From Haloferax volcanii DS2 (lineage in GTDB: Archaea > Halobacteriota > Halobacteria > Halobacteriales > Haloferacaceae): a stretch of DNA of 32,000 nucleotides. The stretch spans positions 1 to 32,000 of the forward strand of contig NC_013968.1 in assembly GCF_000025685.1 (NCBI RefSeq). The letters run 5' to 3'. Under the pieces are notes generated by a model that did no database searches, was not told where the DNA came from, and worked only from the letters and a program-made list of their open reading frames with translations. Positions 2,059 to 32,000 of the stretch are shown piece after piece; within the stretch, counting starts at the first letter, position 1, and each line of letters begins with the position of its first letter. Made by a program: the position numbers and the translations under genes.

Positions 2059-2343
2059 TAGGGATACCCGCTGAGATTACGACTGTTTTCACCGATAAGA
2101 CTGCCCGAGGAGTTTTTTGCTGCTCTGTTGAATAGTTGTGTCTTCGTAGGGCAAATCATCTGTTGAATAGCCGAGGCGAGTGATCGTCGGCTTGGATTAG
2201 TTTCATTCCTGCTCAAGAGCGCTATTCAACACAGCACTTTGAGCAGGTTTGAGAGTAGCATAGATCACTAACTTTTCGTCCTGCTCGTGCCTTATCTAGA
2301 CAGTGCCATTAACTCTATAATGTCCCAATCATAAACATGTAAT

Positions 2344-3240
2344 GTGGCACGAAAGAACGAAAAAGTGACACGAAGGAAAGCCCTCCAAATGATTGGCGCT
2401 GCTGGTTTCACATCTGGTATAGTTGGCACCGCTAGTGCCGAAGAACCTACAGTTGGGCTCCCAACTGGTAAAACAGTCCCTGAATCAAACGTAAAGCTGA
2501 CAAACCAAAATAAAAGAGGAACAGGAAAGGCCAAACAACGCCCACCAAAACGCCCTCCTCGACCTAAAAGAACCTCTTCGATTCCTGATTCACCAACTAA
2601 GCAGGCTCAAGATCGAACAAAGCCGGATACAAATACGAATCAGTGGCTCGCATATGTAGGTGATACATATTTCAATGGCACATATGGGAGTATGTACGCC
2701 GATTGGACTGTTCCTTCAAAACCAGATAAATACGGTGATGTACTTGATCCAACTATGTATTATTTCTCTTCTTTGATTAATTGCCTTGGAATTTGTGACA
2801 AACGAATTATTATACAGCCGGTATTGCAATTTAATCGATTTACTCAAGGAGAATGGGAAATTGCTGCTTGGTGGGTAGAAGATAACAATACTGGTGAGCA
2901 CAGCACCCCAATTACCGTTGATGTTGGAGACGAGCTATCTGGAGCAATTGTAAAACAAGACAACGGCGAGTGGTATATTGATATAATCAATAAGACTACT
3001 GGTGAGTATACCTATCTCTATTCGCCAAATTATGATGATAGGACATTCGACAAGGCTACGCTTACTTTGGAAGCGAATAATTACACACAAGACCAAGATT
3101 GTGCCAAGTTGCCTGGACAAACCACATTCTCATCTGTAGATCTTTACGATCTGAATGATGACTCCCAATCTCCAGAATGGGACAAAACGAAGTATCAGTA
3201 CCTCACAAAGCATCCTCGCCTAGCTGTCTCTGAAGCCTGA
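2344..3240 (+). CDS. Tat-signal secreted protein, glutamic-peptidase (G1/eqolisin)-like. The last 14 codons and the stop are supplied by the inserted IS.
   Basis: GTG start. Twin-arginine signal 'TRRKALQMIGAAGFTSGIVGTASA'. The mature part shows 'NQWLAYVG..ADWTVPS', 'IIQPVLQF', 'WEIAAWWVED', 'VGDELSGAIV' and 'ATLTLEANN', a pattern resembling G1 peptidases. The coding frame crosses the IS boundary at 3195/3196. GC content is low relative to the flanks. Confidence 0.7.
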   Translation: MARKNEKVTRRKALQMIGAAGFTSGIVGTASAEEPTVGLPTGKTVPESNVKLTNQNKRGTGKAKQRPPKRPPRPKRTSSIPDSPTKQAQDRTKPDTNTNQWLAYVGDTYFNGTYGSMYADWTVPSKPDKYGDVLDPTMYYFSSLINCLGICDKRIIIQPVLQFNRFTQGEWEIAAWWVEDNNTGEHSTPITVDVGDELSGAIVKQDNGEWYIDIINKTTGEYTYLYSPNYDDRTFDKATLTLEANNYTQDQDCAKLPGQTTFSSVDLYDLNDDSQSPEWDKTKYQYLTKHPRLAVSEA

Positions 3241-4596
3241 ATTCTGTGGCCGAGCGGTTGCATTGGCGGTTTCGACGAGAGAATCATGGACGGATCGGCG
3301 GAGAGCCGTCGCTGTCGGCGGCGGCTGCCGCCGACGCGACAGCGTCGCCACTCCCACCGTTGGCTAGCCCGGTCGGGAGTTACCGGTGGAACCGGTCGTC
3401 CGGTGGCCGGTTCGCGGGGACGGCCCGACGCGTCGCGAGGGCCGTCCACGCTGCCCGTCGGATCATGTTGATGAACTCCTTGAATGGCCACTGCCAGAGG
3501 CGACGCCCGCCTCGGCGGGGCGTCGCCACGTACTCCCAGTGCAGATACCGCCACACGTTCTGTAACAGCAAGCTCACCACGACGTACAGCAGCCGTACAA
3601 CCGGATTTTGTGTCGAGGTCGTCGCGATACTTTGTTCAGAGAGTCGATAGCTTGCCTCGATACCGAAGCGTTTCGCGTAGTGGTATCGAGCGTCTCGTGG
3701 TGAGTCGATGAACGGCGCGTCAGCGGCGTAGCCGTGACGCGCCACGCCATGTTCGTCGTACCGTCCGTTCTGGTAGGTACAGTCGATGTAGACGGGAAAC
3801 TCGACGGTCCAGCTGTGACCGTCGAGTCTCGCCGTCAGACTGTGCTGAATCACGCGACTCCACCCTTCCGAGAGTTCTCGCTTGATCGTCCGTCCCCAGC
3901 GGACGATCGGCATGACGTACGCGTGGTTGTGCGCCTGAAGCAGCGTCAAACACTTGCTGTCGTAGAATTCGCGGTCAAGATAGACGGCCTTGACACCGAG
4001 GTCAAGGCCGTCGAGAATACCGAGGAACTCTGCGAGGACACTGCTGGCGGTGTCGCCGTCTTCGAGACGGCGCACCGCCAGCGTGTAGCGTTTGTTCTTC
4101 ACGCGTGCGTACAGCGTCGCGTACGCGTGGAACGCGGTGGTTCCACGCTTCGCTTGTGAGTGATACAGGCCGTCCGTGTCGTCTTCGTCACCATAGTAGG
4201 GCCGCAGGTGGAGGTCTGCGCAGACCTCCACCTGCTGGGGAAGGACGTCGAGAACGTCTTTCTGGAGGAGCATGTTGCCAACCTGTTCGAGCGTTTCTAG
4301 ATCGAATTTAGTGCGGAGATGGTAGAGAACGGAGTTTTCGTGGGGTGCATCTTCGCTTCTCTCACAGAGCGTTGAGACCGAGGTCCCGTCGGCGCAGGCG
4401 CCGACGAGGACCTCGTAGATGTCTTCAGCATCGAGTTCAGCGTTTTCAGCGAGTGAGAGAGCAACTTCCTCGTCAAGAGAGTTGACGAGGAAGTTAAGGA
4501 GCTGGTCCTCGTGGATTTCATCGTCTGCTTGCTGTGGTTGCTTGGACACATCTTCAGCAAGCAGACGTCTCAACTAACAGGCTTTGTGATGTACTG
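3196..4596 (-). mobile_element. ISH3-family-like insertion sequence, copy 1 (1401 bp)
   Basis: Terminal inverted repeats CAGTAC(A/C)TCACAAAGC match at 15 of 16 positions, at 3196-3211 and 4581-4596. There is a single transposase ORF. The transposase protein is identical to that of copy 2 at 15144-16544. The flanking pentamers are AGTAT (3191-3195) and AGAAT (4597-4601). Confidence 0.95.
3380..4573 (-). CDS. DDE transposase (ISH3-family-like, 397 aa)
   Basis: Full-length ORF inside the IS. It occurs three times in the window: two copies are identical and the third is about 96% identical at the protein level. Confidence 0.9.
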   Translation of the reverse strand: MRRLLAEDVSKQPQQADDEIHEDQLLNFLVNSLDEEVALSLAENAELDAEDIYEVLVGACADGTSVSTLCERSEDAPHENSVLYHLRTKFDLETLEQVGNMLLQKDVLDVLPQQVEVCADLHLRPYYGDEDDTDGLYHSQAKRGTTAFHAYATLYARVKNKRYTLAVRRLEDGDTASSVLAEFLGILDGLDLGVKAVYLDREFYDSKCLTLLQAHNHAYVMPIVRWGRTIKRELSEGWSRVIQHSLTARLDGHSWTVEFPVYIDCTYQNGRYDEHGVARHGYAADAPFIDSPRDARYHYAKRFGIEASYRLSEQSIATTSTQNPVVRLLYVVVSLLLQNVWRYLHWEYVATPRRGGRRLWQWPFKEFINMIRRAAWTALATRRAVPANRPPDDRFHR

Positions 4597-4601
4597 AGAA
4601 T

Positions 4602-5341
4602 ACGAGAACGGCCCAGACCGTACACGCGAACTCGGGAGCGTGTTCGAGATGTTCGTCGTGGCGGGCGACCTTCGCGACGACACCTCGGATGACCGCGACG
4701 ACGACGAGCAGACCATCATCGAAGAACTGCGCGAGGACGTCGCGGAGACAGCAGAGTCGAACGACGACGGGGTCGTCTCAGGCGACTCGACGCTCAGTGC
4801 GGAACGCGCCCGCATGGTGCGTGAAGCAGAGCAGACGCGCGAACAGATCCTCGGACTCGACGACGCCATCAGCGCGGTCTACGGCCCCGGTGACTCAAAC
4901 ACGTACACCGCCGTCGTCGACGAGGACAGCACGTTCTCACCGACCGTCGACCGCGTCGTCCACGCGCTCGTTGACGACGGATTTTACCACCTCAATACGC
5001 GCCCGTTCGAGGAAGACAACACGGTCGACATTACCGTTGAGGACGTTCCCGAGGACGCATCCCGTGGTGACGAGTTCGCCGACGGCGCTGTGACGGCGAA
5101 CGCTCGCGGGTGCGACGTCACGACGCGCGACGACCAGGAGGCGAGCGACGACGTGCACCGCTACGTCCGCTACGAAGACCACCGAGGAGAGTGGCATACC
5201 GTCGGCTTCCCATCTGCTACTGACGCTCTCAAATGGGCCGATGAGTGGCCCTACGACGTGGAATACCACAGCGACGAACACCGCCACAACGGGCCGGTCC
5301 ATCGTCCCGAGGACGTGACAGCGACCGACTCGAACACCTAA
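4602..5341 (+). pseudogene. 3' portion (246 codons) of a gene split by IS insertion and then separated by inversion. The 5' portion is at 16875..16545 (-).
   Basis: The reading frame stays open from the IS boundary at 4597 through the annotated ORF 4640..5341. Joining it to 16875..16545 across one copy of the AGAAT duplication gives an uninterrupted 356-codon ORF. Confidence 0.7.
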
Positions 5342-5496
5342 ACGAAACCGGGCTTGTCCGCGGTGAGGACGCCCCCGGCTCACCAACTGCGATGAATCCA
5401 GTTTCGAGGCTTTTCCCGAGAAGATCAGACAGGAGCGTGATGTCAGTCGCCGCAGTAGTCCAGTGTTCAGCGTACCGACGCCCACATCGATGACGG

Positions 5497-5742
5497 TTAC
5501 AGCGTCTGTTCGATCCACTCGCACCACGAGTGGAAGTCCTTCGCGCCGCATTGGTCGGCGATAGACCTGAGAGTCCCAATCTTGAGTTCGTCGTGCTGCG
5601 GCACGTCGACGTTTCGGACTTCTCCCGTCTCAGGATGCTCGTATCGGAGCCGAACGTGGCTTCCATGGCGGGATTTCGGGACGTATCCGTACTTCGTGAG
5701 TGCTTTGGTGACCTCGCGGCCAGAGAACGTCCTCCGTACCAT
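5497..5742 (-). CDS. hicA: HicA-family toxin (mRNA interferase, 81 aa)
   Basis: 'SGREVTKALTKYGYVPKSRHGSHVRLRY..' matches the HicA/YcfA pattern. It lies immediately downstream of a HicB-like gene. Confidence 0.8.
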   Translation of the reverse strand: MVRRTFSGREVTKALTKYGYVPKSRHGSHVRLRYEHPETGEVRNVDVPQHDELKIGTLRSIADQCGAKDFHSWCEWIEQTL

Positions 5743-6006
5743 CTACTGCATAAAGTCGGGCAGTTCGCGGTTCTCGAACTCGTCGGGGTCGAGGCCGAGT
5801 TCTTCGAGGTCATCGTCGGTGATGGGCTCACCACCACCCTCGTGGAGAACGAGAACCTCCGCAAGCTGCGAAAGTGCTTCTGCTCGGGTGTCGCCACCAC
5901 GTGCGAGACCAGTCTCGGTATCGCGGGCGGTGATACTCCCGTCGTCTTCGCGGATGAACTCGACCCCCTCAAAGTCGTCGTCACCGTTGCGAGTCGCACT
6001 TGCCAT
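5743..6006 (-). CDS. hicB: HicB-like antitoxin (87 aa)
   Basis: Small acidic protein directly abutting hicA: its stop codon at 5743-5745 adjoins the hicA ATG at 5742. The N-terminal 'FEGVEFIREDDGSITARDTETGLARGGDTRAEAL' fits a HicB/UPF0150-type fold pattern. Confidence 0.65.
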   Translation of the reverse strand: MASATRNGDDDFEGVEFIREDDGSITARDTETGLARGGDTRAEALSQLAEVLVLHEGGGEPITDDDLEELGLDPDEFENRELPDFMQ

Positions 6007-6137
6007 ACTAAACTCGAATCGGTCTCAGAGGATAAGCGTTCGGACGGTGAAGAACCGTGCAGACACCTTCTCAATTCCGCCCACACGGTTACCTTCGAAT
6101 GTAGCTCTTCAAAACCGAAAAAGGGCGATGGATGTCG

Positions 6138-6419
6138 TTACTCGCGGTGGAGGATGATGGTCTTGCGGTCGGTCTGGACGGTCGCGACCTTCCAGTCAGT
6201 CTGCTCAACAGCACCAAACACCGCGTCGATGAGTCTCTGATGGTTCATCGACGGAACCGCACCGTACTCGAAGAACGCTTCATCTGCGTTGTGGAATCCG
6301 AGGAACTCATGGACGGACTTGGAGAGCGAACGTTCGACAGAGTCGACGAGATCAGCTCGAGGGTCGACGGTATTCTGGAGTGCGGTGCCTGCGTCGGAAC
6401 GGCTGTTATCTGCTGCCAT
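6138..6419 (-). CDS. Hypothetical small acidic protein (93 aa), cassette-driven
   Basis: Starts MAADNS at the conserved GTGATGGCAGCAG start cassette. Confidence 0.65.
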   Translation of the reverse strand: MAADNSRSDAGTALQNTVDPRADLVDSVERSLSKSVHEFLGFHNADEAFFEYGAVPSMNHQRLIDAVFGAVEQTDWKVATVQTDRKTIILHRE

Positions 6420-6520
6420 CACGTCTATTACTTAGGCTGCCGTAATATAAAACCAACGCCATTTCGTTAAAACTGCATGGCGTAACTATTATTATGTTGG
6501 GAGTGTATGTAGTAGATGTG
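6420..6520. promoter_or_regulatory. Bidirectional promoter region carrying two copies of the conserved promoter/start cassette
   Basis: A 101-bp spacer lies between divergent ATGs at 6419 (-) and 6521 (+). Each ATG is preceded by ..GTG. The spacer carries A/T-rich TATA-like boxes (GCGTAACTATTATTA; TTTTATATTA) and TTACGCCAT-type half-palindromes. Confidence 0.6.
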
Positions 6521-6970
6521 ATGGCAGCAGAAGCCGACAAGTCAGGTAAGACTATTTCAAACCGAGCCAACGCACCGTTCAACCCTGCTGACGACGCCGC
6601 GGAGATGTTTGTTATCCCTGAGTCATGGGCGGAACACGGCTCGCATCCCGACCTGCATACCGACCTCGGTGAGTCGCGGTTCTTCGCAACGCGCGTCGTT
6701 TCCCACCCGGACCACGACGAGATTTTGGTGCGCTATTACTCGGCTGCGAAGCGGTCAACGGTAACACGCGGCTACGAGGCTGTGGAAGTTGATGGGTCGC
6801 TTGTTCCGAAGGTCGTCGTCGAGAAGGGGCCTAAGTGGTTCCGAGCGTCGATTAGTCACAGTCACCGCCGTGCGCACGACCTAGACTCTCGTGTCGATAC
6901 GAACATCGTCGCAGACAGATACGGTGACGCCGCGGTCCACGGTGTGTTTAGGACCGAGGATGTTCTCTAA
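6521..6970 (+). CDS. Hypothetical protein (149 aa), cassette-driven
   Basis: Starts MAAEAD directly after TGTAGTAGATGTG. The longer tracked ORF (6494) merely reads through the cassette. Confidence 0.65.
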   Translation: MAAEADKSGKTISNRANAPFNPADDAAEMFVIPESWAEHGSHPDLHTDLGESRFFATRVVSHPDHDEILVRYYSAAKRSTVTRGYEAVEVDGSLVPKVVVEKGPKWFRASISHSHRRAHDLDSRVDTNIVADRYGDAAVHGVFRTEDVL

Positions 6971-7090
6971 CTGACGACACGGGCCGATCTTTCTTTCGAC
7001 ACACCTCAGTAGATACTCACCAGTACAGCCCACTACGGGCTGAATTTGTACATATACGTTTTCATATATGCTAACGAACCAATTCGACAA

Positions 7091-7141
7091 TTACGCTATG
7101 CAGTAACTAATAAGCGGATAGGGGTTCATGTTGTAGTTGTG
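7091..7141 (+). promoter_or_regulatory. Conserved promoter/start cassette
   Basis: TTACGCTATGCAGTAA palindrome, then CTAATAAG, TAGGGG and CATGTTGTAGTTGTG, immediately before ATGGCAGTAGAC. Confidence 0.55.
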
Positions 7142-7501
7142 ATGGCAGTAGACGATTGCGGTGCGACCGACGCACAGGACGAAACTGAACTGGAGACACC
7201 AATCAAAGTCTCGTGGACTGGTAAGGCCCGCTCGAAGGCGTGGGGGCATTTTGTCGACTTTGACGCCGAACCCTACACGCTCGCAGCGCGGACGCTGGAA
7301 CGACAGAAAACGAACGTCGTGGTCAACACCGTTGAGGAGGCCGAGGCTTTAGTCGGCGCACTCGACCGCTACGTCGGCGGCGGCACAACTGGTCAGACGT
7401 GGATGAACAAAGCGATGGACAAAGCGTTCCAGCGCGTGCAGGCCGAAGTCCGCGACGCACTCTCCGAAGCCGAGACGCATCCCCGCGGTGATGACAAATG
7501 A
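7142..7501 (+). CDS. Hypothetical acidic protein (119 aa), cassette-driven
   Basis: Starts MAVDD at the cassette ATG. Its stop overlaps the next ATG in an ATGA junction. Confidence 0.65.
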   Translation: MAVDDCGATDAQDETELETPIKVSWTGKARSKAWGHFVDFDAEPYTLAARTLERQKTNVVVNTVEEAEALVGALDRYVGGGTTGQTWMNKAMDKAFQRVQAEVRDALSEAETHPRGDDK

Positions 7502-7623
7502 CGCCGATAGCCCCCAGCAAACGTGGCGGGCCTTGTACGCCCGATGAGCGCGTCTGTGCCCGCTGTACCGAGATTCACTCGCGGGACGATCTCTACTGTT
7601 CGAGGTGCGCTGACGTCCGCTAA
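7498..7623 (+). CDS. Small zinc-ribbon protein (41 aa): MTPIAPSKRGGPCTPDERVCARCTEIHSRDDLYCSRCADVR
   Basis: Hand-translated ORF, below the 60-aa cutoff of the ORF track. It has paired CxxC motifs (CARC and CSRC). Its ATG overlaps the upstream stop (ATGA at 7498-7501), which suggests translational coupling. Confidence 0.5.
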   Translation: MTPIAPSKRGGPCTPDERVCARCTEIHSRDDLYCSRCADVR

Positions 7624-7669
7624 TACTCTCGAATCGAACCGTCTCGACACAATCGAATTTTTTAGATCA

Positions 7670-7720
7670 TTACGCCATCGCGTAATTACTAAGTGGCTGG
7701 CGGTGTATGTTGTAGGTGTG
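7670..7720 (+). promoter_or_regulatory. Conserved promoter/start cassette
   Basis: TTACGCCATCGCGTAA palindrome (7670-7685), then TTACTAAG and GTGTATGTTGTAGGTG, immediately before ATGGCAGAGACG. Confidence 0.55.
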
Positions 7721-9085
7721 ATGGCAGAGACGAGCACCCACACGATTGCACCGAACGAACTCACCACCGACGATATTTCCCAGGGCGACACGGTCACGCT
7801 CAAGTTCCATTCCAACGCGAAGTGTCAAATCCTGTTCCGCGAGTTTACCGTCGATACCATCAAGAGCAACTACGACGGTTCGGTCGATGAGCTACTCGTT
7901 ACCTACTCCGGTGGGACGGGCAAGCAGTACCGACTGATGGCCGAGTGGGAAGGTGCTATCTTCAACAACGATGCTCGCGGTCGCATCTACGAACTCGGCA
8001 TGGTCTACCAGTTCTGTTTCGACGAGGACGACGAGGGGCCACGTTCGGTCGACACAGAGACGACCACGAGCGCGGTCACGCGGTCACCGACCGGCGCGAC
8101 GCTTGCCATCGAAACGATTGGGATTGAGGGAATCTCCGAGAGAGTCGGCACGGCTCACGTCGTCGACCCTGAGACGCACGACCCGTTCTGTGGCAGTCGC
8201 GGAGTCAAGCAGAAAATTCAGACGGACCATCGCGAACTCTTGGAGGTCGATGCGCTCGCTGACGAACTCAACGTCTGCTCGAATTGCCAGCGCTCCGCGT
8301 TCGCGGGGGATGACTACATTAGTCCCGACGACCTGTTCCGACGTGCCCGCGACTGGACCAACGACGACTTTCGAGGCGACTGGTTCGAGGTCAAGATGGC
8401 GAACGGTGACGTTCGCACGGCCCGACTTCGACACGGGACGAACGACAGCAACGCCGAACACCACCATCTGACGTTCGTGATCGACGGCACGCCCATCCAG
8501 AACTGGATAGTAACCGACACCGACGAACTGAAAGTGACCATCCACGAGTGCAATGCTTACGCTGTCGAAAACCCGGTCTACGGTCCAACACGACGGTTCC
8601 GTGACGCGAAGCGGCAGGTCGTCGACGTGCATCCTATCGACGACGTCGACGATAACAATGACCAGGAGCAGAAGGCCGGCGACGACTCCGCCTCAGAAGT
8701 CCATCTCATGACTGACGGCGGGACGACAACACGTCAGACAGCTCTCGACAAGACCAATGAGTCGCCGTTCCCGGTGAAGATTGAGTGGCGCAAGGCGATT
8801 CGGAAGCGGTTCGAGGACTACCTGTTCGACCGTTGGGCCGCTGACGCTATCGACGATGCAACCTACCTCGCGGTGGATGAATACAAGACGCTCGTCGACG
8901 TGAGCGGCCGTGAGGTCGCCACAGAACTACGCGATGAACTCTCGCGAGCGCTGACGTGCGATGAGTTTGAGATTGGCAAAGGGACTGAACTGCGCTCGAT
9001 AACTCGGGTGCGTGGCGAACTCAACGATGCGCTCGATGACAGCAAGGGCCCGTCACGCAAACGACTGATAACAGGCGAACTTTAG
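7721..9085 (+). CDS. Hypothetical protein (454 aa), cassette-driven
   Basis: Starts MAETSTH at the cassette ATG. Long ORF with acidic composition. It contains a 'CSNCQRS' cysteine pair. I recognised no family. Confidence 0.7.
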   Translation: MAETSTHTIAPNELTTDDISQGDTVTLKFHSNAKCQILFREFTVDTIKSNYDGSVDELLVTYSGGTGKQYRLMAEWEGAIFNNDARGRIYELGMVYQFCFDEDDEGPRSVDTETTTSAVTRSPTGATLAIETIGIEGISERVGTAHVVDPETHDPFCGSRGVKQKIQTDHRELLEVDALADELNVCSNCQRSAFAGDDYISPDDLFRRARDWTNDDFRGDWFEVKMANGDVRTARLRHGTNDSNAEHHHLTFVIDGTPIQNWIVTDTDELKVTIHECNAYAVENPVYGPTRRFRDAKRQVVDVHPIDDVDDNNDQEQKAGDDSASEVHLMTDGGTTTRQTALDKTNESPFPVKIEWRKAIRKRFEDYLFDRWAADAIDDATYLAVDEYKTLVDVSGREVATELRDELSRALTCDEFEIGKGTELRSITRVRGELNDALDDSKGPSRKRLITGEL

Positions 9086-9295
9086 CAGAGTCGTAGAGTA
9101 CGGCTTCGGTCGACAGACGGCCATCCAGCAACCTGAAACGTCTAGATGGCTCTGTTGAATCCCTCAGGCGCTGATAGTTTGCTGAGGCCGTGCTGAATAC
9201 AGGGCGCAAGTCGGTCAAAGTGGTTTGGTGAATTGAACACGGTCAGACGACTGTGCGAGACAAGTATTTTACCACCGCACTCACAATGTACACAC

Positions 9296-9616
9296 ATGAG
9301 TTCCGAATCGGAGAAGAAGCGAGTGCAGTTCCGAGCACCGAGAGGGCTGGTGGATCGGGCTGACACCCTTGCAGCGGTGTTCGAGACAGACCGGACGGAC
9401 ATTCTCATCTCAGCCCTCCGCGAGTATCTTCGGGACGCAGCGCACTCTGACGAAGTGAAGCAGGAGGTCGCAGAAGCGTACTACGACGACGCCATTACCT
9501 TCGAGGAATTAAAGTCTCTCGTCGGTCACGAGGAGGCCGCAAATTTTCGTCTCCTGAAACAGCAGTTGAGCGAGGCATTCGTTGACGACGTGGCAGAAGA
9601 GTTGGCCGACACATAG
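9296..9616 (+). CDS. Ribbon-helix-helix (CopG-like) antitoxin, 106 aa
   Basis: 'KKRVQFRAPRGLVDRADTLAAVFETDRTDILISALREYL' has strand-helix-helix RHH architecture. The stop is followed immediately by the PIN gene ATG at 9617. Confidence 0.7.
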   Translation: MSSESEKKRVQFRAPRGLVDRADTLAAVFETDRTDILISALREYLRDAAHSDEVKQEVAEAYYDDAITFEELKSLVGHEEAANFRLLKQQLSEAFVDDVAEELADT

Positions 9617-9784
9617 ATGGTGCGCATCGTCGCTGATACGTCTGCCCTCGTTAGTTTGGGAACCGTAGCAGACGCCACGACAAACCCACTCGATTTGCTT
9701 CTTGAGTCACACGAACTCCTGCTCCCCAAGCAAGTTCTCGAAGAATTGGCTGAAACAGCATCTTACGACGATGCCTCTGGAGAG
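9617..9784 (+). pseudogene. PIN-domain (VapC-like) toxin gene, 5' part, interrupted by an IS
   Basis: 'MVRIVADTSALVSLG..' is a typical PIN N-terminal strand with the acidic residue. The frame runs into the IS at 9785. Confidence 0.8.
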
Positions 9785-11179
9785 CATTGGTGTTCGGTTA
9801 AGCACTGGATCGCCTCCTGAAGGCCTCAGCTACTCGTTCGTTGAGTAAGAGCCGCGATTTCTCTGGTTGGCGGGCGTCACGAAACAGCAGTTCCGACAGG
9901 TTCGGCGGTGGATGGCCGAACGACTGGGCCAGATCTTCGAGCATGAGCTGGGCGAGAGACCGGAAGGTCTTCGCCCAGCGTTCTCGCGGAAACACTGTCT
10001 CTGGGAACAGCTCCTGAAACACCCCGAGCAAGGCTCTGCTGACCGTCAGCGTCAGCAGAGCCGCCACCACTAACAGCTCCACGATCGCTGGATCACTCGT
10101 CTGGAATTTCTCCAGCCCATACAGCGACTTCAGTTCCCGGAACACCAACTCCACTTCCCACCGCAACCCGTACAGCGCCCCGACCTGCCTTGGAGTGAAC
10201 TCATCGGGCAGATTCGTCACGTACAGGTGGTAGTCGTCGGTGTCCTCGTTGCGGACACCGACGACGCGAAACTCCATCGAATCCGTTGATTCCTTCCCAG
10301 CGTATGCCCGCCGTTTGAACTCGATCTCTACCGTTACGTCGATGATCTCCCGACTGAGATCTTCCAGAACGTCCCGAAGACGACGCTCTGGCAAGGAAAT
10401 GGCGCGCCCGCGCCATTTCCGTCGCTCTCCAACGATCAACGGATTCGCGTTCGACTTCAGCCGACTCAGGAAGAACCCGCCGTTCTCCTCGATCAACGCG
10501 AAGCGGCGGAAACTGTAGAAGCCCAGATCGAACAGTAACAGCCGGCCTCGTAGCCAACTCCCGGTGCGGAGTTGGCTGCTCTCGTGGGTGCGTTCATCGG
10601 TGAGCTGGAACTGCTCGATCGTCTGCTTGGTCGCGTTCTGCACGAGGTGGAGTTTCGCGCCGGATTGACCCGAGTGAGTGGCTGGAAACGAATCGAGGAG
10701 CCGATGCAACCTGAACACGGTTGCATCGGCGATCAGTACGTCTCGAAACAGCTCGAACTGTGGCGCGATCGTGTGAGGAACCGCGACCTCCTCGAGAGCG
10801 TGCTCGAGGAGGTCGTTCAACAGTGCTGCGAGGGCCGGCGTGAACCGATCGTAGAAGCTTGAGCGGGCAACGGTCTGGTTGGTTGCTGCGGAGTACGCCC
10901 GTTGAAAGCCGGCGATAGTTCGGGCTTCGCCGTCGACGGCGAAGCCCATGATGAGCGTCCAGACGAGCATCGTGATGTCGATTTTCCGGTCACGCTGGAC
11001 GACATCGCGCTCGCGCGCGATGTCTTCGATTAGCTCGGTGGGAAACAGGGAAGTCAACCGTCGTCGTATGAGATCCGGGGAGAGTTGGTTTAGCACATTC
11101 TCTCCCCACGCGGTCTACAACGATAGCTTCGTCACTAGAGCGCCGTCTGTCGGTTTCTCCGCTTAACCGAACACGGATG
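9785..11179 (-). mobile_element. IS4-family (ISH8-like) insertion sequence, 1395 bp
   Basis: The ends are CATTGGTGTTCGGTTAAGC and, in reverse complement, CATCCGTGTTCGGTTAAGC. A perfect 10-bp direct repeat CTCTGGAGAG lies at 9775-9784 and 11180-11189. There is one 432-aa transposase ORF. Confidence 0.9.
9798..11096 (-). CDS. IS4-family DDE transposase (432 aa)
   Basis: Full-length ORF within the IR-bounded element. The N-terminal 'MLNQLSPDLIRRRLTSLFP' and the overall layout resemble haloarchaeal IS4/ISH8-type transposases. Confidence 0.85.
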   Translation of the reverse strand: MLNQLSPDLIRRRLTSLFPTELIEDIARERDVVQRDRKIDITMLVWTLIMGFAVDGEARTIAGFQRAYSAATNQTVARSSFYDRFTPALAALLNDLLEHALEEVAVPHTIAPQFELFRDVLIADATVFRLHRLLDSFPATHSGQSGAKLHLVQNATKQTIEQFQLTDERTHESSQLRTGSWLRGRLLLFDLGFYSFRRFALIEENGGFFLSRLKSNANPLIVGERRKWRGRAISLPERRLRDVLEDLSREIIDVTVEIEFKRRAYAGKESTDSMEFRVVGVRNEDTDDYHLYVTNLPDEFTPRQVGALYGLRWEVELVFRELKSLYGLEKFQTSDPAIVELLVVAALLTLTVSRALLGVFQELFPETVFPRERWAKTFRSLAQLMLEDLAQSFGHPPPNLSELLFRDARQPEKSRLLLNERVAEAFRRRSSA

Positions 11180-11189
11180 CTCTGGAGAG

Positions 11190-11546
11190 GCAGCACAAGC
11201 TGTGCTTGACCGTAAGAACGCGTTCGATGTCCGTCCTGTCGAATTGGACGAAACGTTTCCACTGGACGATGGCGAGAATGCGGCAGTCACGTTGGCGAAC
11301 GAAGTGGACGCGAGCCAACTCCTCTGCGACGAGTTCAACCGACTCGCACTGGTCCATGCATCACTCGTTGACACTCGTCTCGTGACGACGCCAATCCTAC
11401 TCACTGCCCTCGTGCGGAACGACGTGCTCTCTCCCGATTCTGCGGAGCAGTCACTCGAGAAGATGAGCGACGCCCGGAGTTGGTCTGCAAATTCTTACGT
11501 CGCACGCGCAAAAGCAACACTACAACAGCAACGAGAGGGCAATTGA
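11190..11546 (+). pseudogene. PIN-domain toxin gene, 3' part
   Basis: Removing the IS and one repeat copy joins ..YDDASGE to AAQAVLDRKN.. in frame. This part contains 'ENAAVTLA', 'LCDEFN' and 'LVTTP' acidic positions consistent with a PIN domain. Confidence 0.8.
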
Positions 11547-11677
11547 CCCCCTGTCCGATTTCAGGTAGCTCATCTCGACCGAACTGAACAGAGGGCGCAA
11601 GTCGATTGGAATCGTCGTCCAGAGCCACTTGAGCCAATTCATTCGAGACAATGTGGCTGTCTATTACTGAGGCACAT

Positions 11678-12256
11678 TCATCGGGTGTCAGTTGCTGGTT
11701 GGTGGTACAGCACCCAGAGAACCGGGATACCAGCAATCGTCCCGAGCAGAAGCAAGGCAGGGGTAGGAATTGGTGGGAGGACACTGTCTACCGATTCGAA
11801 CACCACGTAGAACAGACTCAGTAGTTGGCCGGTCAGTAAAACAGCAAGTGGATATCGCGATTCTTGTTGGTGTTCCCAGTGTCTTCCGGCGACAGTGAGG
11901 CCACTTCCGACGAAAACCCATATGCCAGTGATAATCATTCGAAACCCCTGAGAAACGTCAGCGCGCCATGGCTCGAACACAGCGATGCCACCGATGGCAG
12001 TACAGAGACCAATGACGAGAAGGATTTTTGCAGGTAAAGTCGCCGTCCGCTTGGCACCCGTCTCGTGTCCGTACACCCGCACGAGACCCAGCAGTAGTAA
12101 CACACCGCTGAGGATGAGTGCAAGACCGATTGCGAGTCGTTCAGGTGGGCTGTCCCCAATTTGAGTCACGGCAACCACTGAAATGAGCCCACCTGCAGCT
12201 CCGAATACAGTCAATAAGAGGGCGCTACTGAAGCGGCGAGCCATGATATCCATCAA
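11678..12256 (-). CDS. Polytopic membrane protein (192 aa, about 6 hydrophobic helices), function unknown
   Basis: Repeated 20-residue hydrophobic segments run throughout the ORF. Confidence 0.65.
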   Translation of the reverse strand: MMDIMARRFSSALLLTVFGAAGGLISVVAVTQIGDSPPERLAIGLALILSGVLLLLGLVRVYGHETGAKRTATLPAKILLVIGLCTAIGGIAVFEPWRADVSQGFRMIITGIWVFVGSGLTVAGRHWEHQQESRYPLAVLLTGQLLSLFYVVFESVDSVLPPIPTPALLLLGTIAGIPVLWVLYHQPATDTR

Positions 12257-12608
12257 TCGTGAATGTGTAAATTCTTTGGGTCAATCCCGAATGAGTTCTC
12301 TGCTGAACTCATCCTCTATATTCAGCACGCTGGTTCTGTCTGGTTCGGAGGGTTTCAACAGAGCCGTTGCGGCCACGAGATGACGCACGGCGACGAGGAT
12401 GACGACCATCAGGTGTGTATCGACTGCTATGTCGCCGGATGCGACGGCATCACCAAGCGCTGCGACCACGTCATCCTGACGACGCTCGGTGAGTTCTAAC
12501 CGAGCGCTTGGACACCTCTTTTTCGACCCCACTATTTCCAGTGAAGTAGTACACCAGATACGCTCACATATACGCTCGTGTCTGTCGCACACACCCTCAT
12601 CTTTTTGT

Positions 12609-12627
12609 GTATATGATTCCATATATG
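12609..12627. repeat. 19-mer GTATATGATTCCATATATG, left arm of inverted repeats flanking the par operon
   Basis: Its exact reverse complement lies at 14064-14082. It overlaps the parA promoter and start region. Confidence 0.8.
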
Positions 12628-12636
12628 AATCTGTAT

Positions 12637-13536
12637 ATGCCCAAACAGAATACAGCGAACAGGGCGCTCCGAGCGGCCCTATTCATGGACAAAGGAGGAG
12701 TCACAAAAACCACCAGCACAGCACACCTCGGGGAAGCGCTCGCCCGAGAGTACGGGCTTAACGTCCTACTCATCGATCTCGCAGGAAAGCAGGGCGACCT
12801 CTCTAAGCAGTTCGGCATCCACGATGAGGTTCGTGCCGCCGAAGACGATGCGTGGCCGAATATCTCGACTGTGTTCGCTGAAGAATGGTCGACTATCGCC
12901 GAGAAGGTCCCCGATGCTGTCGAGGACATGATTTGGGAAACTGACGAAAACGTCGACCTCATCCCCGCCCACGAGGGACTGGACAGCGTCGACGACGACC
13001 TCGCGAGCGTCAACGTCGAGGACCGCTACACGCGCCTTGACGAGTTCCTGACGAACTACGTCGACCCTCTCGGCTACGACGTTGTCCTGCTCGACCTCCC
13101 CGGATTGACCAACAATGTTACGCTGAATGGACTGTTCGCGACGGGCCGCGTCATCGCCCCGCTCACGATGGGCGAGTTCGAGGAGCGACAGCTCGATCAA
13201 CTCGTCGCAGACATTGACGAGATTGTCGCTGGTTTCGACGTTGACCTCGAACTGGCGATGGTCCTCCCGAGTATGTACGACAAGCGTGCGAACGTCGACA
13301 CCGAAATGCTCGCCCGACTCCGCGAGCAGTATCCCGACCGTATCGCCCCGAGTCCCATTACCAGCTCACAGGGCGTTCCGAACGCACAAGCCGAAGGCCG
13401 AACCGTCTTCGCCGTCCCGAACGATGAACTCCTCGCGACGGCCAAACGAGTGAAAGACGCCTACACCGACGCTGCGACGGCACTTCTCCAGCGCGTCGAC
13501 GGCGAGACAGCGACGGCCTCCACGGAGACTAACTAA
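12637..13536 (+). CDS. parA: ParA/Soj-family partition ATPase
   Basis: Deviant Walker A 'MDKGGVTKTTSTAHLG' and 'VVLLDLPG' Walker B-like motif. The ATG at 12637 is preferred over the upstream GTG at 12607, which reads through the repeat. Confidence 0.85.
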   Translation: MPKQNTANRALRAALFMDKGGVTKTTSTAHLGEALAREYGLNVLLIDLAGKQGDLSKQFGIHDEVRAAEDDAWPNISTVFAEEWSTIAEKVPDAVEDMIWETDENVDLIPAHEGLDSVDDDLASVNVEDRYTRLDEFLTNYVDPLGYDVVLLDLPGLTNNVTLNGLFATGRVIAPLTMGEFEERQLDQLVADIDEIVAGFDVDLELAMVLPSMYDKRANVDTEMLARLREQYPDRIAPSPITSSQGVPNAQAEGRTVFAVPNDELLATAKRVKDAYTDAATALLQRVDGETATASTETN

Positions 13537-13538
13537 CC

Positions 13539-13925
13539 ATGTCCGACGACGCCGACCTCGAAGAACTCAAAGCACAGACTCAGAAAGGTAGTCGCGTCTC
13601 AGCACAGACCAAGCAGGACGATGGCGACCTCACCGACGCGCTCGTCGACGCGCTCAAGGCCGTCGAAAACGGGGACGTCCACCCGAACGTCTCTGTTCGT
13701 GACGCTCACACCGCTGCACTTCTGCACGCGCTCGAAAATAACCCCGAAGCGATGCACGATACCGTCGACTCACTCCGCGACTACCTAGGCGGTAACGCTG
13801 ACGGAGAGGTCGACAAGAGCGTTCTTATCCGCCTGCTCCTGCGTGCCGGTCTACGCGCCGGTGCGCCCGACACACGCGAATCCCTCGCTGACGCCATCGC
13901 TGAACGCGCCAGTAATGAGATATGA
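13539..13925 (+). CDS. Small acidic protein downstream of parA (128 aa), possible partition adaptor or centromere-binding partner
   Basis: Tightly linked to parA by a 2-nt gap. I recognised no motif; the role is inferred from position only. Confidence 0.6.
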   Translation: MSDDADLEELKAQTQKGSRVSAQTKQDDGDLTDALVDALKAVENGDVHPNVSVRDAHTAALLHALENNPEAMHDTVDSLRDYLGGNADGEVDKSVLIRLLLRAGLRAGAPDTRESLADAIAERASNEI

Positions 13926-14063
13926 AATCGCGCGACTGGTACTCTGCGAATTGAACTGCTAATCTGTTTTCGGCTCTGTTCGGTAGTCGAAGTTAGGACG
14001 GCCTGGAGCTGTTCGAGTAGCGTCGCAGTCATCTCTCAAGACGGCAGTCCGCTCTTGATTGAG

Positions 14064-14082
14064 CATATATGGAATCATATAC
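14064..14082. repeat. 19-mer CATATATGGAATCATATAC, right arm of the par-flanking inverted repeat
   Basis: Exact reverse complement of 12609-12627. Confidence 0.8.
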
Positions 14083-14581
14083 GCCTGTAATTCCGGTTTC
14101 AGAGGGGGGGTTTCCAATGCATTACCCCGAGGGTTTCTGTCCTAAGATACCCCTCCAGATTCACCGAGGAAAGTCGGTCCTTCACCAGAGGGTGATTCTA
14201 AGATTCAAAATTCTCGGGGAGAGCGAAAATTACTCAGAAAAGATACCGTTTTTGGAAGCTCGTTGTCGGCGAGAGACAACGAGGATTAGTAAAATATCGG
14301 CCCGTCGCCGGATTTTGACGATGAATCCTATGCCGCTATACCGAATCCCGGGGGAAACGTCACCACAGTTTCGGCGTTTGGATTCCGTTGCGTGGCTTAT
14401 TTTCACACTGTTTGAATTTGAATAGGCTCTTGTCTTGCGGTTTTCGAATCTATAGTGGTGAGAAAGCTAGGAAAAATTTTCTGAGTGACATATAATCAGA
14501 ATCGACAGGCTTCTCCTATTTCATTATTATAATGCTTGAACAGAAGACACGCAACACTTCCATCCTCCGAGATTGTGGGTG

Positions 14582-14834
14582 TTTCTGGCCGATGCGTTCG
14601 GATATCGGACTGTCTTCTCTTGATTAGGTGTGAACGGTCGGGTCGACTACACCGAGCGAAACCTCATCGAAGTGGTTTCACACGTTCAAAATGAGAGTCG
14701 ACCGTTTCCACAACTCGTGGGTGGGCAGTCGGCTGAGCGTCCGCCAGTGGCATGCAGTGTTTATCCATTACTATAATTTTCAGCGACCGCATCAATCGCT
14801 CGACGGAAGAACGCCAGCTCAGGAGGTTAACTAG
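14582..14834 (+). pseudogene. IS6-family transposase gene remnant (3' end only, with an in-frame stop and a frameshift)
   Basis: Hand translation gives 'FLADAFGYRTVFS*LGVNGRVDYTERNLIE', then a +1 shift, then 'WFHTFKMRVDRFHNSWVGSRLSVRQWHAVFIHYYNFQRPHQSLDGRTPAQEVN*'. The second part matches the C-terminal signature of IS6-type DDE transposases. Confidence 0.7.
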
Positions 14835-15069
14835 ACAGTTCCTGTGGTCTGCATCAATTATATCCTCCAAGTTTTTGGGACGGTAGCAAAAGATTGACAC
14901 CTAGCGATGACGTATATATTTTCCATGTACGCGCAGACAATTGGCCCAAATCCTGGTGGACTTCCAAATTCAGAACTAGAATTAATTGTAGTGGTAGTCG
15001 CTATAATCGTACTAGTCGATCTGATTTACATTTTATATTCAAAGAAAAAGAAGAACAGTTGAAAGAGGC

Positions 15070-15138
15070 TTACTCAGGGTCGATTGTTACTTTACGTTTA
15101 TTGTGTTTCGTAATGTCGTAGTCACAAGTTCGATAAGC
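15070..15138 (-). pseudogene. Displaced native 3' end (22 codons plus stop) of the peptidase-like gene at 2344
   Basis: Joining 3195 to the reverse complement of 15138..15070 continues the frame as ..KTKY-AYRTCDYDITKHNKRKVTIDPE-stop. The GC content is low like the parent gene. Confidence 0.65.
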
Positions 15139-15143
15139 ATACT

Positions 15144-16544
15144 CAGTACATCACAAAGCCTGTTAGTTGAGACGTCTGCTTGCTGAAGATGTGTCCAAGC
15201 AACCACAGCAAGCAGACGATGAAATCCACGAGGACCAGCTCCTTAACTTCCTCGTCAACTCTCTTGACGAGGAAGTTGCTCTCTCACTCGCTGAAAACGC
15301 TGAACTCGATGCTGAAGACATCTACGAGGTCCTCGTCGGCGCCTGCGCCGACGGGACCTCGGTCTCAACGCTCTGTGAGAGAAGCGAAGATGCACCCCAC
15401 GAAAACTCCGTTCTCTACCATCTCCGCACTAAATTCGATCTAGAAACGCTCGAACAGGTTGGCAACATGCTCCTCCAGAAAGACGTTCTCGACGTCCTTC
15501 CCCAGCAGGTGGAGGTCTGCGCAGACCTCCACCTGCGGCCCTACTATGGTGACGAAGACGACACGGACGGCCTGTATCACTCACAAGCGAAGCGTGGAAC
15601 CACCGCGTTCCACGCGTACGCGACGCTGTACGCACGCGTGAAGAACAAACGCTACACGCTGGCGGTGCGCCGTCTCGAAGACGGCGACACCGCCAGCAGT
15701 GTCCTCGCAGAGTTCCTCGGTATTCTCGACGGCCTTGACCTCGGTGTCAAGGCCGTCTATCTTGACCGCGAATTCTACGACAGCAAGTGTTTGACGCTGC
15801 TTCAGGCGCACAACCACGCGTACGTCATGCCGATCGTCCGCTGGGGACGGACGATCAAGCGAGAACTCTCGGAAGGGTGGAGTCGCGTGATTCAGCACAG
15901 TCTGACGGCGAGACTCGACGGTCACAGCTGGACCGTCGAGTTTCCCGTCTACATCGACTGTACCTACCAGAACGGACGGTACGACGAACATGGCGTGGCG
16001 CGTCACGGCTACGCCGCTGACGCGCCGTTCATCGACTCACCACGAGACGCTCGATACCACTACGCGAAACGCTTCGGTATCGAGGCAAGCTATCGACTCT
16101 CTGAACAAAGTATCGCGACGACCTCGACACAAAATCCGGTTGTACGGCTGCTGTACGTCGTGGTGAGCTTGCTGTTACAGAACGTGTGGCGGTATCTGCA
16201 CTGGGAGTACGTGGCGACGCCCCGCCGAGGCGGGCGTCGCCTCTGGCAGTGGCCATTCAAGGAGTTCATCAACATGATCCGACGGGCAGCGTGGACGGCC
16301 CTCGCGACGCGTCGGGCCGTCCCCGCGAACCGGCCACCGGACGACCGGTTCCACCGGTAACTCCCGACCGGGCTAGCCAACGGTGGGAGTGGCGACGCTG
16401 TCGCGTCGGCGGCAGCCGCCGCCGACAGCGACGGCTCTCCGCCGATCCGTCCATGATTCTCTCGTCGAAACCGCCAATGCAACCGCTCGGCCACAGAATT
16501 CAGGCTTCAGAGACAGCTAGGCGAGGATGCTTTGTGAGGTACTG
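15144..16544 (+). mobile_element. ISH3-family-like insertion sequence, copy 2 (1401 bp)
   Basis: Same inverted repeats as copy 1. The flanking pentamers are ATACT (15139-15143) and ATTCT (16545-16549). Confidence 0.95.
15167..16360 (+). CDS. DDE transposase (ISH3-family-like, 397 aa)
   Basis: Protein identical to that of 3380..4573. Confidence 0.9.
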   Translation: MRRLLAEDVSKQPQQADDEIHEDQLLNFLVNSLDEEVALSLAENAELDAEDIYEVLVGACADGTSVSTLCERSEDAPHENSVLYHLRTKFDLETLEQVGNMLLQKDVLDVLPQQVEVCADLHLRPYYGDEDDTDGLYHSQAKRGTTAFHAYATLYARVKNKRYTLAVRRLEDGDTASSVLAEFLGILDGLDLGVKAVYLDREFYDSKCLTLLQAHNHAYVMPIVRWGRTIKRELSEGWSRVIQHSLTARLDGHSWTVEFPVYIDCTYQNGRYDEHGVARHGYAADAPFIDSPRDARYHYAKRFGIEASYRLSEQSIATTSTQNPVVRLLYVVVSLLLQNVWRYLHWEYVATPRRGGRRLWQWPFKEFINMIRRAAWTALATRRAVPANRPPDDRFHR

Positions 16545-16875
16545 ATTCTGCTTTAACTTCGACCTTCGGGACGCCATCGTTGAAGGTGTGTGAGACGGTG
16601 TGGTCTTTTGTCTCCGCGGTCGTGTCGTAGGCGAGCGTCATCATCGGGTTGTCGTTATCGTGCCACTTTGCCTCGCCAGCGGGAGTGTAGTCGACGTTCG
16701 TGATTTTACCCGATTCGTAGCGTTCGAGTCCCTGCCCGTTGAGGTACATGACGTGGAACTCTGCGCCGTTGAGGTCGACGTCACCCTCGAATAGCTCGCG
16801 GGCATCCTCGTCGTCCGCGAGTCGGTGGACGTTCTCCGCATCTGCGTCAACATTGGCGTTGATGTCTACTGCCAT
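16545..16875 (-). pseudogene. 5' portion (110 codons) of the split cassette-driven gene; continues at 4602..5341 (+)
   Basis: Starts MAVDINANV at a cassette ATG (16875). In the present arrangement the frame runs into the IS and ends 12 codons later at 16507. Confidence 0.7.
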
Positions 16876-16927
16876 CACATCTACAACATGGATTCCCACA
16901 CTTATAAAAATTACGCCATAACGTAAC
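16876..16927 (-). promoter_or_regulatory. Conserved promoter/start cassette
   Basis: On the minus strand: GTTACGTTATGGCGTAA palindrome, then TTTTTATAAG, TGTGGGAA and CCATGTTGTAGATGTG, immediately before ATGGCAGTAGAC. Confidence 0.55.
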
Positions 16928-17017
16928 AGAGTTGGGGACAGGTGGTGTTCAAAATGGATGTCGCTCGTCGGCAGGTGCCAAAATAAAATGGGTTCAGCGC
17001 CCGACACTCGGGCGCTC

Positions 17018-17512: not shown

Positions 17513-17709
17513 CGGCCACCCCACTCGAAGTATGCAAGCAGTTCCGCGGCGTCGACGACCGTGAGACGCGCGACGTGTTCGTGCGTGAACTTCTGTTGGT
17601 AGACGGCAATGACCTGCGAGGTCGTTTGCTCGCAGTCATCGCGTTCCCATCGCGAGAGGGGTTTCGCTGAGCGCTCGGTCTTAGTCCACTCGCCGGGATG
17701 TCCGTTCAA
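17509..17709 (-). CDS. Hypothetical protein (66 aa)
   Basis: Sits between two coupled ORFs on the same strand, with a consistent acidic composition. Confidence 0.5.
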   Translation of the reverse strand: MNGHPGEWTKTERSAKPLSRWERDDCEQTTSQVIAVYQQKFTHEHVARLTVVDAAELLAYFEWGGR

Positions 17710-17715
17710 TTCACC

Positions 17716-17973: not shown

Positions 17974-18075
17974 CACAGATACTACTACACACGCAAGTAA
18001 TTTAATAATTACGCTATATGGTTATGTCTCTATAGGGTAATTATTAAGTAAGTGGGGCTTCACGTAGTAGATGTG
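17974..18075. promoter_or_regulatory. Bidirectional promoter region with two cassette copies
   Basis: A 102-bp spacer lies between divergent ATGs at 17973 (-) and 18076 (+). It carries TAATTATTAA and GGTAATTATTAAG boxes, TTACGCTAT, and GTGGGG..CGTAGTAGATGTG. Confidence 0.6.
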
Positions 18076-30713: not shown

Positions 30714-32000
30714 CAGCACATCACAAAGCCGGTTAGTTGAGACGTCTGCTTGCTGGAGATGTGTCCAAACAACAGCAGCAAGCAGACAGTGAAATTCACG
30801 AGGACCAGCTCCTTAACTTCCTCGTCAACTCCCTTGACGAGGAAGTTGCTCTCTCACTCGCTGAAAACGCTGAACTCGATGCTGAAGACATCTACGAGGT
30901 CCTCGTCGGCGCCTGCGCCGACGGGACCTCGGTCTCAACGCTCTGTGAGAGAAGCGAAGATGCACCACACGAAAACTCGGTTCTCTACCATCTCCGCACC
31001 AAATTTGACCTTGAGACGCTCGAACAGGTTGGAAACACGCTCCTCCAGAAGGACGTTCTCGACGTCCTTCCCCAGCAGGTGGAGGTCGTTTCGGACCTCC
31101 ACCTGCGGCCCTACTACGGCGACGAAGACGATACAGACGGCCTGTATCACTCACAAGCGAAGCGTGGAACCACCGCGTTCCACGCGTACGCGACACTCTA
31201 CGCGCGTGTGAAGAACAAACGCTACACGCTGGCGGTGCGCCGTCTCGAAGACGGCGACACCGCCAGCAGCGTCCTCGCAGAGTTTCTTGGTATTCTCGAC
31301 GGCCTTGACCTCGGTGTCAAGGCCGTCTATCTTGACCGCGAATTCTACGACAGCAAGTGTTTGACGCTGCTTCAGGCGCACAACCACGCGTACGTCATGC
31401 CGATCGTCCGCTGGGGACGGACGATCAAGCGAGAACTCTCGGAAGGGTGGAGTCGCGTGATTCAGCACGACCTGACGGCGAAACTCGACGGTCACAGCTG
31501 GACCGTCGAGTTTCCCGTCTACATCGACTGTACCTACCTGAACGGGCGGTACGACGAGCATGGGGTGGCGCGTCACGGCTACGCCGCTGACGCGCCTTTC
31601 ATCGACTCACCGCGAGACGCTCGATACCACTACGCGAAACGCTTCGGTATCGAAGCGAGCTACCGACTCTCCGAGCAAACGATTGCGACGACTACGACAC
31701 AGAATCCGGTCGTACGGCTGTTGTACGTCGTGGTGAGTTTGCTGTTACAGAACGTCTGGCGGTATCTGCACTGGGAGTACGTGGCGACGCCCCGCCGAGG
31801 CGGGCGTCGCCTCTGGCAGTGGTCGTTCAAGGAGTTCATCAACATGATTCGACGGGCAGCGTGGACGGTCCTCGCGGTGCGTCGGGCCGTCCCCGCGAAC
31901 CGGCCACCAGACGACCGGTTTAGCCGGTAACTCTTGACCGGGCTAGCCAGCGGTGTGAGTGGCGACGCTGTCGCGTCAGCGGCTGACCGCCGCCGACAGC
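30714..32000 (+). mobile_element. ISH3-family-like insertion sequence, copy 3 (diverged; right end lies beyond the window)
   Basis: The left IR CAGCACATCACAAAGCC starts at 30714. A 1401-bp element would end near 32114. Confidence 0.9.
30737..31930 (+). CDS. DDE transposase (ISH3-family-like, 397 aa), diverged copy
   Basis: Same length as copies 1 and 2, with about 15 amino-acid substitutions. Confidence 0.9.
   Translation: MRRLLAGDVSKQQQQADSEIHEDQLLNFLVNSLDEEVALSLAENAELDAEDIYEVLVGACADGTSVSTLCERSEDAPHENSVLYHLRTKFDLETLEQVGNTLLQKDVLDVLPQQVEVVSDLHLRPYYGDEDDTDGLYHSQAKRGTTAFHAYATLYARVKNKRYTLAVRRLEDGDTASSVLAEFLGILDGLDLGVKAVYLDREFYDSKCLTLLQAHNHAYVMPIVRWGRTIKRELSEGWSRVIQHDLTAKLDGHSWTVEFPVYIDCTYLNGRYDEHGVARHGYAADAPFIDSPRDARYHYAKRFGIEASYRLSEQTIATTTTQNPVVRLLYVVVSLLLQNVWRYLHWEYVATPRRGGRRLWQWSFKEFINMIRRAAWTVLAVRRAVPANRPPDDRFSR

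Follow-up and report, generated by a model that had tools for sequence, protein, structure and literature searches.

Plasmid pHV1 of Haloferax volcanii DS2 carries a 10.5-kb segment that is flipped relative to related plasmids and is bracketed by a pair of identical insertion sequence (IS) copies of the ISH51 type, which stand in opposite orientation to each other. The segment lies within the first 32 kb of pHV1 (NC_013968.1, positions 1 to 32,000), the whole of which was analysed and is hereafter referred to as the window; its Orc1 protein (101-1327) and the next open reading frame (ORF) are identical to ADE05207.1 and HVO_C0002 of this strain. Two genes are split in the window, a peptidase-A4-like gene at the breakpoint termed site A and a 356-codon gene at site B, and both are restored when the segment is turned back. 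The 5-bp target-site duplications are distributed crosswise over the two IS copies, and the segment is inverted with respect to three relatives. The polarity of the change is clear: the window is the rearranged state, because it is the window that holds the broken genes and the IS copies at the breakpoints. An earlier note, made from the sequence of this DNA alone, had proposed that 4597-15143 was flipped by homologous recombination between two inserted elements, and its structural claims are examined below together with the proposed route. For comparisons of gene order, we built a predicted ancestor by joining window 1-3195, the reverse complement of 4597-15138 and window 16550-32000 (the reconstruction). 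Coordinates of all features are compiled in Table 1.

Table 1. Position and strand of the inverted segment, the mobile elements and the split genes, in window numbering
Feature	Position	Strand	Basis or remark
Inverted segment, 10,547 bp: HicA toxin gene, five small ORFs, IS4-type element, parA, DUF8115 gene	4597..15143	.	opposite orientation in pHGLR3, L017, L014
ISH51-type (ISH3 family) IS, copy 1, 1401 bp	3196..4596	-	100% identical to copy 2
ISH51-type (ISH3 family) IS, copy 2, 1401 bp	15144..16544	+	exact reverse complement of copy 1
Transposase of copy 1, 389 aa, GTG start	3380..4549	-	identical copy-2 protein scored against NF033541
Transposase of copy 2, 389 aa, GTG start at 15191	15191..16360	+	NF033541 score
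Target-site duplication A, outer half, AGTAT	3191..3195	+	reverse complement of 15139-15143
Target-site duplication A, inner half, ATACT	15139..15143	+	reverse complement of 3191-3195
Target-site duplication B, inner half, AGAAT (reverse complement of ATTCT)	4597..4601	+	single AGAAT in pHGLR3
Target-site duplication B, outer half, ATTCT	16545..16549	+	reverse complement of 4597-4601
Peptidase-A4-like gene, secreted (twin-arginine signal), first 284 codons, cut at site A	2344..3195	+	52% identity to P0001
Displaced last 22 codons and stop of peptidase-A4-like gene	15070..15138	-	P0001 alignment
N-terminal part of site-B gene, start codon at 16875, pentamer included	16545..16875	-	rejoined ORF, pHGLR3 homologue
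C-terminal 245 codons of site-B gene	4602..5341	+	rejoined ORF, pHGLR3 homologue
IS4-type element in inverted segment, 432-aa transposase	9785..11179	-	own 10-bp duplication at 9775-9784 and 11180-11189
IS6-family (ISHme1-like) element fragment, element positions 662-732	2237..2307	+	sequence match
Fragment of same IS6-family (ISHme1-like) type, element positions 1-267	14578..14842	-	sequence match
Third ISH51-type copy, diverged (94-95% identical), cut by window end; left flank ATAAT	30714..32000	+	sequence comparison

Identical IS copies with crosswise duplications

Alignment of copy 1 with the reverse complement of copy 2 revealed 0 mismatches over 1401 bp, and the positions given in the earlier note for two inverted copies with identical transposases, 3196-4596 (-) and 15144-16544 (+), are correct. 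Both are 84-92% identical to annotated ISH3-family elements and end in terminal inverted repeats, CAGTACATCACAAAGC and CAGTACCTCACAAAGC, that are alike in 15/16 positions. Although the transposase is not recognised in a Pfam scan, it is by NCBIfam, where the copy-2 protein scored 383 bits against NF033541, 'ISH3 family transposase' (cut-off 225), over model positions 1-298 of 298. Its start codon was set by analogy with the annotated coding sequence of a 91.5% identical element (L020). Length and layout also fit the ISH3 family (1401 bp, a single 389-codon ORF and short inverted repeats), this one ORF being unaccompanied by any resolvase gene. A 5-bp target-site duplication, called 'typical for ISH3-type transposons' (PMC7002104), becomes evident once the copies are paired crosswise. 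Within the ISH3 family, the pair belongs to the ISH51 type known from haloarchaea (Hofman et al. 1986, as cited in PMC2841640) and shares with ISH51 the 1.4-kb length, the 16-bp terminal inverted repeats and the 5-bp duplication; it is ordinary in that it shows no difference of substance from known ISH51. According to the genome paper, pHV1 carries six ISH51 and six 'IS4' elements. The third ISH51-type copy of the window (30709-32000 with its flank), whose right end lies past the window, is direct to copy 2 and inverted to copy 1, an orientation that makes further IS-mediated deletion or inversion of the region possible.

The flanks are arranged as AGTAT-copy 1-AGAAT and ATACT-copy 2-ATTCT, each outer pentamer being the reverse complement of the other copy's inner pentamer. 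The crosswise match is exactly 5 bp long, with different bases following outward at both sites, and the swap reported in the earlier note is hence exact to the base. Given the pentamer frequencies of the window, two such matches would arise by chance with P ~2e-6, a value that rises to ~4e-4 when only A...T pentamers are admitted as a crude target preference. The flanks seen for this IS type are all of this A...T form (AGTAT, AGAAT and ATAAT here; AGTCT and AAGCT elsewhere), which suggests a target preference of the element. As a control, 2/3 related ISH3-type copies in other genomes were found to keep a perfect 5-bp duplication of their own (L022 and L023: AGTCT and AAGCT), which the third lacks. 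Inside the inverted segment, the IS4-type element (9785-11179) provides an internal control and likewise keeps its own perfect 10-bp duplication, CTCTGGAGAG. A 90.8%-identical ISH3B-type copy on a Halorubrum ezzemoulense megaplasmid (L021; NZ_CP034941.1, 73174-74694) has unmatched flanks (..CATATT / ATTCTACC..), and its duplication may have been parted by a rearrangement.

Gene order in relatives and breakpoint B

Breakpoint B is mapped to the base by plasmid pHGLR3 of Haloferax gibbonsii LR2-5, already set against pHV1 by its authors. pHGLR3 aligns with window 18526->16545 (98.1%) and then directly with 4597->9202 (96.9%), the two alignments overlapping by 5 bp, whereas comparison with the reconstruction yields one alignment of 6584 bp. 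At site B, this plasmid reads GTTAAAGC-AGAAT-ACGAGAACGG, with a single pentamer and no IS, and an annotated 349-aa gene crosses the site unbroken. Rejoining of 16545-16875 (-) and 4602-5341 (+) generates the 356-codon ORF, whose product and the unbroken pHGLR3 protein (WP_244661374.1) share 96% identity along their full length. The continuity of this gene in the un-inverted arrangement, as claimed in the earlier note, is thereby upheld. When the DS2 lineage was searched for breakpoint B in an unbroken state, the hits were confined to the pHGLR3 cluster and a single partial protein from a metagenome. Window 9203-12318, which holds the IS4-type element, has no counterpart in pHGLR3.

Two further relatives display the un-inverted order. 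In L017, another Hfx. volcanii strain (GCA_045111245.1), four blocks match window 1-2039 (+), 14578->12595 (-), 6996->6481 (-) and 17509-22240 (+). These blocks are monotonic and confined to a single strand against the reconstruction only, not against the window, and the contig leads from window <=2110 straight to 14577 downwards and from 6481 to 17509 upwards, both as in the un-inverted order. On the left side of the segment, the metagenome contig L014 joins window 1-2110 (+) to 14577->12525 (-), again as predicted for the un-inverted state. The three relatives (pHGLR3, L017 and L014) lack these IS copies, have the segment the other way round from the window and are collinear with the un-inverted order, which corroborates the flip of 4597-15143.

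In the chromosome of Haloferax alexandrinus wsp1 (L019; CP048738.1, 2702667-2723893), a parA module is oriented as in the window and is free of these IS copies. We considered this locus as a possible refutation of the inversion and rejected it as a mosaic: the DNA common with the window amounts to ~1.8 kb only (window 12525-14340), the neighbouring gene, of 512 aa, is unrelated to the window, and no junction is common to the two. L019 is the only relative with the parA module in this orientation, and the comparison brought up no relative with the present order and without IS copies; the existence of such a relative is what the earlier note had named as fatal to its proposal.

Breakpoint A and its low-GC island

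Breakpoint B is traced to the base in pHGLR3, and breakpoint A is pinned by protein homology only; no DNA homologous to site A was found in any relative compared. The ORF starting at 2344 gives a weak Peptidase_A4 match (E = 0.0014, below the Pfam cut-off), and the tail at 15070-15138 (-) adds 22 codons and a stop to it. Among 5.8 billion proteins, P0001 (304 aa, 52% identity) is the sole close homologue of the encoded protein. With the un-inverted tail in place, the P0001 alignment crosses the junction and ends <=3 residues from both C-termini, whereas in the present arrangement it halts at the junction and leaves the 14 IS-derived codons that follow unaligned. The tail is also the top match to the last 23 residues of P0001 among 33,228 six-frame windows, with a score of 43 as compared with 38 for the next independent site. 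The assignment of this tail to the peptidase gene by the earlier note is therefore borne out in the un-inverted reading, and only there.

An intact breakpoint A was not recovered by a protein-guided scan of genome contigs with the rejoined peptidase, nor by exact-pattern scans of genome and metagenome contigs with the tail sequence. Similarly, the homologue search with the peptidase returned no DS2-like intact copy, and the contig bearing P0001 (L002) has nothing in common with the window except the gene itself.

Site A sits in a low-GC island (43-47% GC) that is found in pHV1 only and is absent from L017, L014 and pHGLR3. Once un-inverted, the island (2111-3195 + 14578-15143) forms one contiguous block, which appears as a single indel against L017. 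It is bracketed, in the reconstruction only, by the two IS6-family fragments, which are then co-oriented and 1.2 kb apart. Judged by these remains, the island looks like what is left of an IS6-type pseudo-compound transposon, which may have carried in the peptidase gene.

Origin of the inversion

It is very improbable that the inversion was introduced into the reference by faulty assembly, through a wrong path across the 1.4-kb repeat. Short-read assemblies do leave the orientation undecided: contigs from many runs stop within ~30-150 bp of the IS ends and are blind to the isomer, since a given flank adjoins the same end of the IS in both. However, an independent 84,974-bp contig of the Joint Genome Institute (JGI), indel-rich and 99.2% identical to the window, follows the present path from window 15732 to 4 in one 15.8-kb match that contains all of copy 1 and 589 bp of copy 2, and its alignment splits into two on the un-inverted isomer. 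Since this contig shows the present isomer, a misassembly does not account for the flip. Scarcely credible, too, is a pHV1 in which nothing was inverted, the IS copies having degenerate (4/5) duplications of their own at similar targets, with the relatives rearranged instead or the crosswise match coincidental. Such a view draws on the L019 parA module and on properties of the flanks that do tell against our interpretation, namely, that pentamers A and B differ at the middle base alone and each copy's own flanks match in 4/5 positions. Together with the apparent target preference of A-rich A...T flanks, these own repeats make the pentamer argument somewhat weaker; the two controls, IS copies with perfect duplications of their own, tell in its favour. 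The pentamers by themselves are weaker evidence than the earlier note held; it is the comparative evidence that settles the inversion. The opposite orientation is seen in three relatives that lack the IS copies, of which one retains an intact gene and a single pentamer, and in the window the break in each gene coincides exactly with an IS end. Moreover, it would be implausible for the 20 flank bases to have taken two point changes beside 1401 unchanged bp, and L019 shares neither junction nor neighbour with the window. The comparisons with pHGLR3 and L017/L014 effectively refute a pHV1 without inversion, and all explanations other than the two routes weighed below are, even taken together, improbable.

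The flip was probably caused by two insertions followed by homologous recombination between the inverted copies. An ISH51-type element would have entered AGTAT within the secreted peptidase-A4-like gene, and an ISH51-type element in the opposite orientation would have entered ATTCT within the 356-codon gene of unknown function, each insertion making the 5-bp duplication typical of the ISH3 family. A reciprocal exchange between the identical 1.4-kb copies, for which host homologous recombination is the likeliest agent, would then have flipped 10,547 bp, leaving each copy with one half of each duplication and swapping the distal halves of both genes. We infer separate insertions and recombination, rather than the transposase, as the origin of the flip; identical inverted copies, crosswise flanks and the opposite orientation in relatives without the IS are all in place, and IS pairs with 'hybrid' duplications on Halobacterium plasmids have been read in the same manner, as insertion followed by recombination (PMC7002104). 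For one ISH3C pair, that work found rearranged versions side by side in one culture. Several observations nonetheless weigh against this interpretation. The earlier note had called the flanks the 'exact signature' of insertions and recombination; they do fit, but the claim of exclusiveness falls, as one-step intramolecular replicative transposition leaves the same flanks (PMC4471558) and no sequence feature tells the two routes apart. Neither intermediate, that is, the two-copy un-inverted isomer or a one-copy plasmid, was present among contigs with an identical Orc1 or HicA protein, which are either short-read contigs ending at the IS or the JGI contig with the present isomer. Both isomers might be expected if recombination were frequent, and the two assemblies, a very small sample, show one. 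For breakpoint A there is a single homologue to go by, 52% identical and with a modest 7/21 residues matched in the tail. Finally, the third copy in the window differs by 5-6%, while copies 1 and 2 are identical, which suggests that one of them is the direct daughter of the other; such identity is automatic in a one-step event, whereas two insertions need the same donor or later gene conversion.

In this one-step alternative, which we deem possible though unlikely, a single ISH51 copy, lodged at one of the sites with an ordinary 5-bp duplication, would attack the other site on the same molecule 'in trans', and replication via the strand-transfer intermediate would double the IS, invert the DNA in between and split the new duplication, as inverted copies, over both junctions. 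The observed flanks and the identical inverted copies are just what it predicts, the 100% identity (as against 94-95% for the third copy) follows automatically, and the same pattern and reading are known for IS26 and Tn4401 (He et al. 2015, PMC4471558). On the other hand, it needs replicative transposition of the Shapiro type, a mode well established in the IS6, Tn3 and Mu groups and one of which our literature search found no report for the ISH3 family, nor indeed any paper on the transposition pathway of that family. The element encodes no resolvase beside its one ORF, and related copies occur as simple insertions with their own duplications. The one-copy ancestor that this route calls for was not found among contigs with the same Orc1 or HicA or with homologues of the rejoined genes, in data too sparse for this to count as absence. 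We are more doubtful still of the broader proposition that the structure is the footprint of a transposase-driven inversion in one step and that the ISH3 family is able to transpose replicatively within a molecule. If this were true, pHV1 would be a ready natural substrate for testing ISH3 chemistry in a genetically tractable archaeon, and it is only through such use, for determining how ISH3-family elements move, that the inversion would acquire wider significance.

Related rearrangements and consequences for pHV1

Inversions with a 'hybrid target duplication' are already documented in haloarchaeal plasmids, and the one described here is real but of a textbook kind; no paper on this particular pHV1 inversion was found in the literature. 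The nearest cases are an inversion by an ISH8B pair on pHS3 of Halobacterium salinarum R1 and the ISH3B/ISH3C rearrangements with 'hybrid' duplications in strain 91-R6 (Pfeiffer et al. 2019, PMC7002104). As on pHV1, an identical IS pair on a haloarchaeal plasmid lacks duplications of its own and has them crosswise, un-inverting mends a split gene, a related strain supplies the parental order, and ISH3-type elements with 5-bp duplications are involved. The cases differ in organism, replicon and IS subtype, as well as in the length of the duplications, 5 bp at both junctions of pHV1 versus 10-11 bp for ISH8B. Furthermore, data on population heterogeneity are available for Halobacterium, whereas pHV1 is known here from assembled sequence. 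The bacterial IS26 and Tn4401 examples (PMC4471558) also feature an inverted segment between identical opposed copies, with the duplications as inverted copies on different elements. Unlike the archaeal ISH3 case of pHV1, however, they belong to families known to transpose replicatively (IS6 and Tn3), and the duplication of IS26 is 8 bp rather than 5 bp.

Relative to orc1, the flip has turned round parA, the genes for DUF8115 and the HicA toxin and several small ORFs, so that parA, the toxin gene and their neighbours are oriented opposite to the ancestral plasmid. In addition, the 5' portion of the site-B gene (16545-16875), with the promoter, is parted from the remainder. No further coding sequence is lost by it, because the insertions had already broken both genes, and the flip should be reversible and selectively near-neutral. 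pHV1 may thus exist as two isomers in a much-used model archaeon, which matters for mapping, engineering and assembly. Four gene fragments on pHV1 are now explained as two genes, each broken once. The chief value of the finding lies in annotation and strain work; beyond that, it adds a well-resolved example to the known cases of IS-driven plasmid remodelling among haloarchaea.

Other features of the window

Five different genes have a 5' cassette of ~60 nt in common, located at 6475-6532 (+), 7096-7153 (+), 7675-7732 (+), 18030-18087 (+) and 16864-16926 (-). The cassette contains a partial palindrome, TTACGC-N4-GCGTAA, and a TATA-like TTATTAAG, followed by GTTGTAGATGTG-ATG-GCA-GTA-GAC, the encoded proteins beginning with M-A-V-D or similar. 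By its composition it looks like a putative common promoter/operator reused on pHV1, and the copy at 16864-16926 precedes, and putatively drives, the split gene of site B.

Two large adjoining genes at 23448-30316, encoding proteins of 984 aa and 1305 aa, bear TraG/TraC-like and TrwB/VirD4-like ATPase signatures and are conserved at 98% in L014 and L019. These signatures suggest a conjugation-like DNA-transfer module on pHV1. L019 places orc1, a homologue of HVO_C0002, parA and a TrwB-like gene inside a 3.7-Mb Haloferax chromosome record, which suggests that this region is an integrated plasmid of the pHV1 type.

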